A model generated the notes under the pieces. The model ran no database searches. It was given only the letters and a program-made list of their open reading frames with translations, and was not told the origin of the DNA. Of a stretch of DNA of 64,000 nt, positions 49,040-55,472 are shown one piece after another (within the stretch, counting starts at the first letter, position 1; each line of letters starts with the position of its first letter). This stretch comes from an uncultured Chloroflexia bacterium (GTDB taxonomy: Bacteria; Chloroflexota; Anaerolineae; Anaerolineales; UBA4823), in assembly GCA_963714425.1 (NCBI GenBank), contig CAVQOI010000001.1, positions 286,938-350,937 on the forward strand. The letters are read 5' to 3'. A program made the translations under genes and the position numbers.

Positions 49040-49080
49040 ATTGGGGCTGTGCGCGTAATTCACACACGCACAGCCCCAAT
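49040..49080 (-). terminator. intrinsic terminator after infA
   Basis: ATTGGGGCTGTGCG (49040-49053) pairs with CGCACAGCCCCAAT (49067-49080). On the minus strand it is followed by CTCTCTTTATTT. Confidence 0.75.
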
Positions 49081-49161: not shown

Positions 49162-49422
49162 CTAGCCTTCTTGTTCTTCTCCAACAGGCGTCTCTACCAT
49201 CTTGCGGTAGCGGAAGACGATACGCCCACGGGTCAAATCGTAAGGGGATATCTCAACTCGGACACGGTCACCCAGTAAAATGCGAATATAGTATTTGCGC
49301 ATTTTGCCAGACAGGTATGCAAGTACCTCGTGCCCATTATCCAGACGAACCTTAAATTGGGTCGCCGGCAAAGCCTCGATAACAACGCCTTCGACCTGTA
49401 TCTTATCTTCATCTTTAGCCAT
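49162..49422 (-). CDS. infA: translation initiation factor IF-1 with short acidic C-terminal extension
   Basis: The S1-like core [66 protein letters not shown] is followed by [13 protein letters not shown]. Confidence 0.95.
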
Positions 49423-49444: not shown

Positions 49445-49642
49445 CTACTCAGAATCAACCGCCTGGCGGCGGCGAATACGGCGCATCGACTTTTTCTTTT
49501 GAATGCGACGCAGCTCGCTCTTGGAGACAAACCAGCGCTTGCGCCGTACGGTGCTCAAGATGCCGCTTTTTGCCACTTTCTTGCGAAAGCGCTTGAATAA
49601 CTGATCTTGCAACTCATTGGGTCTTAAGTTGACATTAGCCAA
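49445..49642 (-). CDS. rpsU: 30S ribosomal protein S21
   Basis: ORF 49445..49651. TTG 49642 lies 7 nt after AAGGAGG and gives MANVNLRPNELQDQLFKRFRKKV..., a typical S21 N-terminus. Confidence 0.9.
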   Translation of the reverse strand: MANVNLRPNELQDQLFKRFRKKVAKSGILSTVRRKRWFVSKSELRRIQKKKSMRRIRRRQAVDSE

Positions 49643-49695
49643 ACTTTTCACCTCCTTTCCAGGCGTTGGATATTGTTGATCAACGGGATTTAATC

Positions 49696-49870
49696 AAAAA
49701 ACCCGGCAGCTTTCATAGACACAGCCGGGCCAGACTTACATGAAAGTAGCGAATAATCACTCAGAACGCGATATGCTCTCTCCTATTGCCTGGTTGCAAA
49801 CTGCACGCTAAAACGTACATTCCCATGAAAGTTGCATGAATATTATAACAGCAAGAAAATTAATTGTCAA
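49696..49870 (-). promoter_or_regulatory. consensus sigma-70-type promoter plus ~190-nt leader with a U-tract hairpin upstream of rpsU-infA
   Basis: On the minus strand: TTGACA (49870-49865), a 17-nt spacer and TATAAT (49847-49842). Then a hairpin CCCGGC/GCCGGG (49729-49724 / 49707-49702) followed by U6 (49701-49696). Confidence 0.55.
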
Positions 49871-49885
49871 TTAATAGAAAAAGTC

Positions 49886-50003
49886 CCTTGGCAATGACCT
49901 ACTCTCCCAGGGGGTCGCCCCCCAAGTACCATCGGCGCTGACGGGCTTAACGACCGGGTTCGGAATGTGGCCGGGTGTACCACCGTCGCTCCAATCACCA
50001 AGA
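49886..50003 (-). rRNA. rrf: 5S ribosomal RNA
   Basis: The reverse complement reads TCTTGGTGATTGGAGCGACGGTGG...CCGAACCCGG...GCGCCGATGGTACT...GAGAGTAGGTCATTGCCAAGGG, with the terminal helix closing. Confidence 0.9.
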
Positions 50004-55167: not shown

Positions 55168-55472
55168 AACTTTATACGCACAGAGTGCGTTTGGTTACGG
55201 ATGTTCCTGAAAAGACAGGTTGTCGCTTTCTATCACTTTTCAGTTGTTAAGGTCCAGTCAATCAAGCGGGCTGGATTGTACCAGCCTCACTTGTGCCTGT
55301 CAAGGCTGAAACGATTGTTACACAGACGCAATCGCCGATGCCTAAACTCTCTGACATCGGCCCGTCAGACCATCAAGTTTTTAACTCAGGTCTCTGACGC
55401 AGGGGCGTCCTATTCAGTTGTTACCGGTCTGCCCACTTGGGCTAAACCTCAACTTGTAACTTCGCGTATTCT

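Follow-up and report, generated by a model that had tools for sequence, protein, structure and literature searches.

On the minus strand of the 64-kb stretch of DNA analysed here (the window), the 5S rRNA gene is followed by a strong promoter, a non-coding leader and the genes rpsU and infA, which encode the ribosomal protein bS21 and the initiation factor IF1 (Table 1). The source genome has one 5S and one 16S gene, and this 5S gene is the last gene of its sole rrn operon. An initial annotation of the window had described a perfect promoter just past the 5S gene, a hairpin with a U-tract, a repeated 9-mer with an AUGAAAG element in the hairpin loop, and a leader ahead of rpsU-infA. All of these features are present, the hairpin is the minimum-free-energy fold, and the leader has been borne out as a non-coding one that ends in a predicted intrinsic terminator.

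Table 1. Features of the rpsU-infA locus, with their positions in the window
Feature	Position	Strand	Basis or remark
5S rRNA gene	49886-50002	minus	Rfam RF00001, 93.4 bits; upstream neighbour, outside the leader element
Sigma-70 promoter TTGACA-17 nt-TGn-TATAAT	49842-49870	minus	12/12 consensus match
5' element GCAACUUUCAUGGGA	49821-49835	minus	5' strand of the predicted long-range helix; holds distal ACUUUCAUG
Hairpin UGUACGU-UUUA-GCGUGCA	49802-49819	minus	Minimum-free-energy folds; species-variable
Conserved SD-like box AGGAGAGAGCAUAUCG, GGAG motif	49769-49784	minus	GGAG nearly invariant in alignment A2
Proximal ACUUUCAUG copy	49739-49747	minus	Exact repeat; specific to the source genome
Predicted intrinsic terminator (putative attenuator)	49696-49731	minus	Minimum-free-energy hairpin and U6
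3' strand of the predicted long-range helix, UCUAUGAAAGCUG	49707-49719	minus	3' half of the loop and first base of the 3' arm
rpsU extended Shine-Dalgarno (SD) sequence GAAAGGAGGUGA	49648-49659	minus	12 nt complementary to the 16S 3' end
rpsU (bS21), probable TTG start at 49642	49445-49642	minus	ORF; tblastn relatives with 70-89% identity
infA (IF1)	49162-49422	minus	ORF; 22 nt past rpsU, co-transcribed
Strong terminator ending the operon, 18-bp stem	49040-49080	minus	Terminator scan

The -35 hexamer of the promoter (49870-49865) starts 15 nt past the end of the 5S gene, and the -10 hexamer (49847-49842) carries the TGn extension with its TG at 49850-49849; from these positions, the start of transcription is predicted at about 49837-49835. 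This is the single perfect match in the window. When up to one mismatch is allowed, two sites are found against 0.07 expected, the second of which precedes the 16S gene. A near-consensus site, TTGACA-17-TACAAT, lies about 110 nt 5' of the 16S gene (55275-55303, minus strand) and is probably an rrn promoter. Genome-wide, perfect TTGACA-17-TATAAT occurs 11 times against 0.47 expected (among others at C1:211224 and C14:282457 of genome G000), and several of the 11 sites lie ahead of tRNA genes, at least two of them directly. As consensus copies are both enriched and placed before tRNA genes, the organism employs the consensus at its strongest promoters.

The hairpin within the leader consists of GGCCCGGC (49731-49724), a 16-nt loop and GCCGGG (49707-49702), followed by U6 (49701-49696); its paired 5' arm spans 49730-49724 and its loop 49723-49708. 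A GC-rich stem of 6-7 bp that runs directly into a U-tract has the composition of an intrinsic terminator, and termination at this site is predicted on that basis. Our terminator scan, which allows loops of 3-8 nt, missed the hairpin solely because of its loop size. A hairpin and U-tract stand at the equivalent place in 82 of the 82 leaders analysed, with an atypically large loop of 12-16 nt, and the stem is 92-94% paired in the two alignments described below. The stem sequence, GCUCGGCUG...CAGCCGGGC, is far more conserved than the function of a terminator requires. In the window, about 40 nt separate the end of the U-tract from the GGAGG core of the rpsU SD, and in some leaders (L079, L094 and L118) the U-tract lies only 9-15 nt from the SD. 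In several loci the gap between terminator and SD thus leaves no space for a second promoter, which implies that rpsU-infA is expressed there through read-through of the terminator.

Downstream of the U-tract, a further segment complementary to the 3' arm of the terminator was observed (49684-49691, minus strand, in the window). About half of the loci, among them L004, L023, L084, L069, L056 and L024, have such a segment 8-15 nt downstream, with GCCGGGC-U6AUUGUCUU-GCCCGGC and GGUCGGG...CCCGACC as examples. The segment could pair solely in read-through transcripts, and the signal is weak (-9.01 for own versus -8.48 for cross combinations, with 87 of 20000 permutations as low).

In order to follow the leader through the family, we searched 121 family genomes, identified rpsU in 103 of them and took the 430 nt upstream of it, in 105 loci altogether. 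The promoter pattern TTGAC[AT]-N16-18-TAnnnT, about 215-280 nt upstream of rpsU, is matched by 81 of the 105 loci, 63 of which have perfect TTGACA/TATAAT hexamers; in most of the loci outside this strict pattern, the leader is the same and the -10 is of the GGTATAAT type. The spacer measures 17 nt in 79 of the 81 loci and its sequence is unrelated between loci, that is, the hexamers are kept over unrelated spacers in about 80 genomes. A DNA search of 60 relatives showed that the end of the 5S gene and the promoter are kept in many genera, and a relative from the same genus aligns across the entire leader. By tblastn, the gene order 5S-leader-rpsU-infA was found in 19 loci, and rpsU-infA synteny in all 19 of the first loci.

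A 5S gene precedes the promoter in 43 of the 81 pattern-matching loci; the other 38 have no 5S gene upstream, and for 36 of these at least 60 nt of sequence are available upstream of the -35 hexamer. Termination of rRNA read-through can therefore not explain the existence of the element, and we rule out that it is a mere rrn-operon terminator. It is plausible that the hairpin also ends rRNA transcription in the source genome as a secondary role, given its sole rrn operon and the lack of any further terminator behind the 5S gene. A broader version of this idea is that the hairpin is an unregulated dampener or insulator, a constitutive leaky terminator that ends rRNA transcription and fixes a low level of read-through, while the long-range helix described below merely makes the 5' UTR more compact and stable or directs how it is processed. 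The single rrn operon, the 43 loci that do follow a 5S gene and the lack of another terminator from the 5S gene to the hairpin would all be consistent with this, as would the strong conservation of the stem, which is also seen in constitutive attenuators such as the rimP leader (PMC2965389). However, the 38 loci without a 5S gene are not accounted for, and a passive terminator needs neither a helix that covaries with its loop, nor near-iso-energetic, mutually exclusive folds, nor an SD-like box; we therefore regard an unregulated element as unlikely, if still worth bearing in mind.

A covariance model of the leader finds one match per genome, always just upstream of rpsU. This placement bears on a further possibility, namely that the element is an independent sRNA gene of about 140 nt that happens to lie beside rpsU and acts, for example, as a decoy for bS21 or for 30S subunits. 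With a perfect promoter and a terminator of its own, its terminated product should be abundant, and the SD-like box could titrate 30S subunits. However, a free-standing gene would not be expected always directly upstream of rpsU, on the same strand and once per genome, and since several genomes have no space for a separate rpsU promoter, the RNA must at least also be a leader. A purely independent sRNA hence seems to us a rather improbable explanation.

The feature that is newly documented here is a long-range helix, backed by covariation, between the 5' element of the leader and the loop of its terminator, which we first noticed by eye. Each leader can pair through its first 20 or so nucleotides with the 3' half of its own terminator loop, and both sides covary (Table 2). 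In the window, 49834-49822 would form 12 pairs with 49719-49707 (-11.4 kcal/mol), G49707 included. Among 80 distinct leaders, the duplex with the own loop has an energy of -14.75 kcal/mol versus -10.63 kcal/mol for cross-species combinations, and none of 20000 permutations was as low.

Table 2. 5' elements and terminator loops in individual leaders
Leader	5' element	Terminator loop
Window	CUUUCAUGG	CUAUGAAAG
L037	GACGUUCA	UGAACGUC
L059	GACGUUGA	UCAACGUC
L117	GAAGUUCAG	CUGAACUUC
L080	GAACGCGG	CCGCGUUC
L048	GUAAUCGCGU	ACGCGAUUAC
L095	GGUUGUC	GACAACC
L116	AUUCGCAG	CUGCGAAU

Two alignments were used to examine the helix. Alignment A1 was made with MAFFT from spliced 5' ends and terminators and used no structural information, and alignment A2 was made independently from 76 full-length leaders. 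In A1, 8 of the 8 core pairs of the helix have changed on both sides and the core helix is 83% paired; for the whole structure, 84% of the cells are paired, a share that falls to 27-43% once the 3' partner is shifted by 1-3 columns, and the observed scores were reached in 0 of 500 shuffles. In A2, compensatory changes are found at 9 of the 9 core pairs, with 79% of the cells paired. Covariation in related genomes had been named in the initial annotation as a check on the elements it described, and these counts show it for the helix. A second helix, GCUCU:AGAGC, which would close the middle domain, is unsupported, with only 59% of its cells paired across subtypes, and RNAalifold run on the mixed alignment returned the terminator stem alone.

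The initial annotation had also proposed how the switch would work. The 9-mer ACUUUCAUG occurs at 49832-49824 and at 49747-49739 and nowhere else in the window, and AUGAAAG lies at 49716-49710. At least two copies of the 9-mer in 64 kb were obtained in 8 of 100 shuffles, which is a weak control; we infer that the presence of both copies inside one 94-nt stretch of leader is non-random. It had been suggested that the proximal copy, once paired with the loop, encloses the 5' arm of the stem and in this manner acts as an antiterminator, and an exact 9-mer repeat with 7 bp of complementarity to the loop does speak for it. The pairing of CUUUCAUG with AUGAAAG is backed by covariation and stands, but the choice of the proximal copy as partner does not. 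That copy is absent from every relative examined, including the one from the same genus; its fold (-38.6 kcal/mol in the window) is the least stable, 6.3 kcal/mol worse than the terminator (-44.9 kcal/mol) and 4 kcal/mol worse than the fold with the distal helix (-42.6 kcal/mol); and the predicted partner of the copy is the GGAG box, not the loop. With no counterpart in relatives, the proximal copy is ruled out as a conserved antiterminator, and we give very little credence to a switch built on it in this genome. As judged from the alignments, it is the distal copy, located at the 5' end of the transcript, that is conserved as the partner of the loop. As a separate observation, the genome-specific proximal copy is predicted in both competing folds to pair with the AGGAGAGAG box (49784-49776), and on this prediction it would be an anti-SD-like sequester of the SD-like box, present only in the source species.

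The strands follow each other in the order 5' element, 5' arm, loop strand and 3' arm, which is the arrangement of a pseudoknot, and only 0-1 nt separate the loop strand from the 3' arm. The commonest subtype has a helix of 11-12 bp that lies only about 1 nt from the 5' arm; from A-form geometry, we infer that the full helix and the full stem could not coexist in these leaders. Another subtype has an 8-bp helix with a linker of 5-6 nt, which continues, GCUCUGGC with GCUGGAGC, into the 5' arm. Where the helix is short and the linker has 5-6 nt, helix and terminator could therefore coexist as a pseudoknot, and the helix might instead aid termination or form a protein-binding site. The overlap between helix and terminator also amounts to only 1-2 nt, which counts against an attenuator. 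When either structure is forced, terminator and helix differ by 2.8 +/- 4.3 kcal/mol among the 76 leaders, with the helix winning in 19. When the RNA is truncated just ahead of the 3' arm, 5 or more nucleotides of the loop pair with the first 35 nt in 89% of the leaders, as compared with 53% of cross-species chimeras and 34% of leaders with shuffled 5' ends. The appearance of the helix in these truncated RNAs together with the near-equal energies leads us to regard the long-range helix as the likely antiterminator, the conformer that permits read-through, and the hairpin as the conformer that stops transcription. A local antiterminator hairpin beside the 5' arm (GAGC...GCUC or AGCCAAGC...GCUCGGCU) was also considered and was discarded, its energy across the family (-5.76 kcal/mol) being no better than that of shuffled sequences (-5.49 kcal/mol).

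Taking these findings together, we think it probable that the leader is a cis-acting transcription attenuator of the rpsU-infA operon. According to this model, the consensus sigma-70 promoter would drive the synthesis of a 5' UTR of about 193 nt, and in many relatives a small hairpin at the 5' end would present the first nucleotides of this UTR in its loop. Hairpins of other sequence fill the position of 49802-49819 in relatives (type-A alignment). Once the terminator loop has been transcribed, and ahead of the 3' arm, the long-range helix could form; it would overlap the top pair of the terminator stem and in many relatives would leave too few linker nucleotides for full closure of the stem. 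In the alternative conformation, the conserved GC-rich hairpin and U6 would halt RNA polymerase after about 140 nt, and bS21 and IF1 would be produced solely from read-through transcripts. The balance between helix and terminator would presumably be set by a factor acting in trans.

What this factor might be can be approached through the middle of the leader, which differs between subtypes and shows no evident single binding pocket. The architecture, with a covarying closing helix, variable peripheral hairpins and a conserved junction box, is aptamer-like, and the helix could in principle be the closing P1 of a small-molecule riboswitch whose junction binds a translation-linked metabolite. However, the junctions differ by subtype (AGGAGAGAGCGUAUCG, GGAUGGUGA and CCGGAGGACAACGC) with only GGAG-like purines in common, there is no Rfam match, and the distribution covers one family and a few neighbouring families, all of which makes a riboswitch very unlikely to our minds. 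A metabolite is an unlikely signal because no binding core is conserved.

What almost every leader does have is a purine box that matches a portion of AAAGGAGGUGA, to which the 16S 3' end GAUCACCUCCUUUCU is complementary. A match of at least 5 nt to this anti-SD complement is found in 88% of the leaders versus 56% of shuffles, a modest enrichment, and the energy of the duplex between box and 16S tail is -10.45 kcal/mol in leaders versus -8.52 kcal/mol in shuffles. A strong SD-like box in mid-leader could mean leader-peptide attenuation, in which the box drives a tiny upstream ORF whose translation disrupts the terminator. However, a start codon 4-10 nt after the box is present in 17 of the 76 leaders versus 13% of shuffles, and the frames that follow are inconsistent in length, from 1 to 48 codons, with no conserved upstream ORF in the 76 leaders; translation of a leader peptide thus appears hardly credible as the mechanism.

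The SD of rpsU itself, GAAAGGAGGUGA, has 12 consecutive bases perfectly complementary to the 16S tail and is nearly invariant in relatives; the 12-mer occurs three times in the 3.94-Mb genome, one of these occurrences being the 16S gene itself. In a comparison at the sequence level, no word of more than 8 nt is shared between the leader and 16S or 23S rRNA. Both bS21 and IF1 act at translation initiation, and bS21 adjoins the anti-SD, the accessibility and use of the anti-SD tail depending on bS21. We consider free bS21, or a bS21-dependent state of the 30S subunit read via the GGAG box, the most likely candidate signal; IF1 comes second and is less likely. The element is a conserved structured 5' UTR of the operon of its candidate regulators, as expected of an autogenous ribosomal-protein leader, and the binding of bS21 or IF1 to it is hypothetical. 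A more specific and speculative idea, which we put forward as a possibility with a small chance of being correct, is that the leader senses ribosome composition without a leader peptide, through co-transcriptional binding of its ORF-less SD-like box by the anti-SD tail of the 30S subunit. In such a case, the 30S anti-SD would bind the box (AGGAG in the source genome, different parts of AAAGGAGGUGA in the other subtypes), the occupancy of which would decide between helix and terminator. If this were true, the box and the 12-nt SD of rpsU would make up a two-layer circuit that gauges ribosomes without bS21, and the leader would be the first structured RNA operator for bS21.

The taxonomic range of the leader was surveyed with the covariance model, named R1, which is sequence-heavy and was used with strict filters, so that divergent versions would be missed. 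Matches, one per genome, were obtained in 24 of about 32 family genomes and, beyond the family but inside its order, in 7 of about 270 genomes; under the same strict filters, which miss divergent forms, none was obtained in 300 genomes of the other orders of the class. Among public sequences, 45 of 80 rpsU loci match, in metagenome-assembled genomes (MAGs) labelled Anaerolineales, Anaerolineae, Anaerolineaceae, Anaerolinea sp., Chloroflexota or 'uncultured Chloroflexia'. Other Anaerolineales, for example Leptolinea MAGs, have kept the promoter, a GGAGG box and a ACUCGGCUG...CAGCCGAG terminator, and their terminator loops are short. In still other Anaerolineales (L152, L161-L163, L166, L167, L171, L174, L182, L187 and L194), rpsU lies directly behind an S1-domain (rpsA-like) gene and is leaderless.

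Some genomes encode divergent rpsU paralogs, and the lack of the leader at these paralogs counts against the attenuator explanation. The paralogs L206-L212 (60-73% identity; G112:C1:4002150-4003300 and 2243900-2245060, G127:C5, G138:C55, G134:C264, and G122:C130 and C391) have in common a different conserved element, about 250 nt long, in their upstream regions, GTTATAATA...GCCTGGT..GCGAG..TACATCTAATGA..TTGGTCTG..AACGACC..GGGGG..CACTTCGCT..GATCCCGCGAGCTTCTCATTAGATT..CAGCCAGGCTG. A search of Rfam with this element gave no match at E <= 0.1, and the S21 paralogs may have in it a second structured leader that is unrelated to the first.

We found no prior description of the rpsU-infA leader in Rfam 15 or in the published literature; Rfam 15 gave no match at gathering score and, at E <= 10, merely a noise match of 15.5 bits. 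The statement in the initial annotation that this is not a described ribosomal-protein leader thus holds, and to our knowledge no structured leader family has been described for bS21 or IF1. The element is thus real and conserved, an attenuator-type leader that has no public description and forms a new RNA family within a known kind of regulation. It is a covariation-supported RNA of about 140 nt that is present in many uncultured Anaerolineales genomes, some deposited as Anaerolinea or Leptolinea, and we suggest that it be annotated as a leader and not as an rRNA-operon terminator or an orphan sRNA. The geometry of the proposed switch, in which a 5' loop would pair into the loop of a terminator, is unusual, and if bS21 or bS21-free ribosomes were the signal, the leader would link ribosome heterogeneity to transcription attenuation.

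Several known systems show similarities to this leader. The L20 leader of the Bacillus subtilis infC-rpmI-rplT operon and the S10 leader of Escherichia coli, which responds to L4, are likewise structured 5' UTRs of translation-protein operons, closed by an intrinsic terminator. Genes for an initiation factor and for ribosomal proteins are combined in the L20 operon too, and a long-range pseudoknot is part of the L20 operator in E. coli. The rpsU leader, however, has no sequence or structure homology to these leaders and no Rfam match, its candidate regulator is bS21 or IF1, and its helix would target the loop of the terminator and not an arm of the stem. In ON riboswitches such as those for fluoride and ZTP and the pbuE adenine riboswitch, a long-range helix formed by the 5' end also competes with an intrinsic terminator. 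There, the 3' strand of the helix overlaps an arm of the terminator and the binding core is conserved, whereas in the rpsU leader this strand is located in the loop and the junction varies from subtype to subtype. The leader of the rimP-nusA-infB operon is likewise an attenuator with an unusually conserved stem in an initiation-factor operon (PMC2965389); it is essentially a terminator alone, whereas the rpsU leader adds an upstream domain of about 100 nt that covaries with the loop. With regard to the gene concerned, there are two systems in which rpsU is controlled through its own leader. In Francisella, bS21 represses its own mRNA via the 5' UTR, as described for rpsU2 of F. tularensis (PMC13374519). 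In flavobacteria, the extended SD of rpsU is preferentially read by bS21-free ribosomes, and the unusually long SD of Flavobacterium johnsoniae rpsU (PMC9976891) has its counterpart here in the 12-nt SD that is nearly unique in the genome. The flavobacterial control is translational, unlike the transcription attenuation that we propose, and a promoter-proximal terminator and a covarying long-range helix are both missing from the rpsU leaders of Francisella and Flavobacterium.
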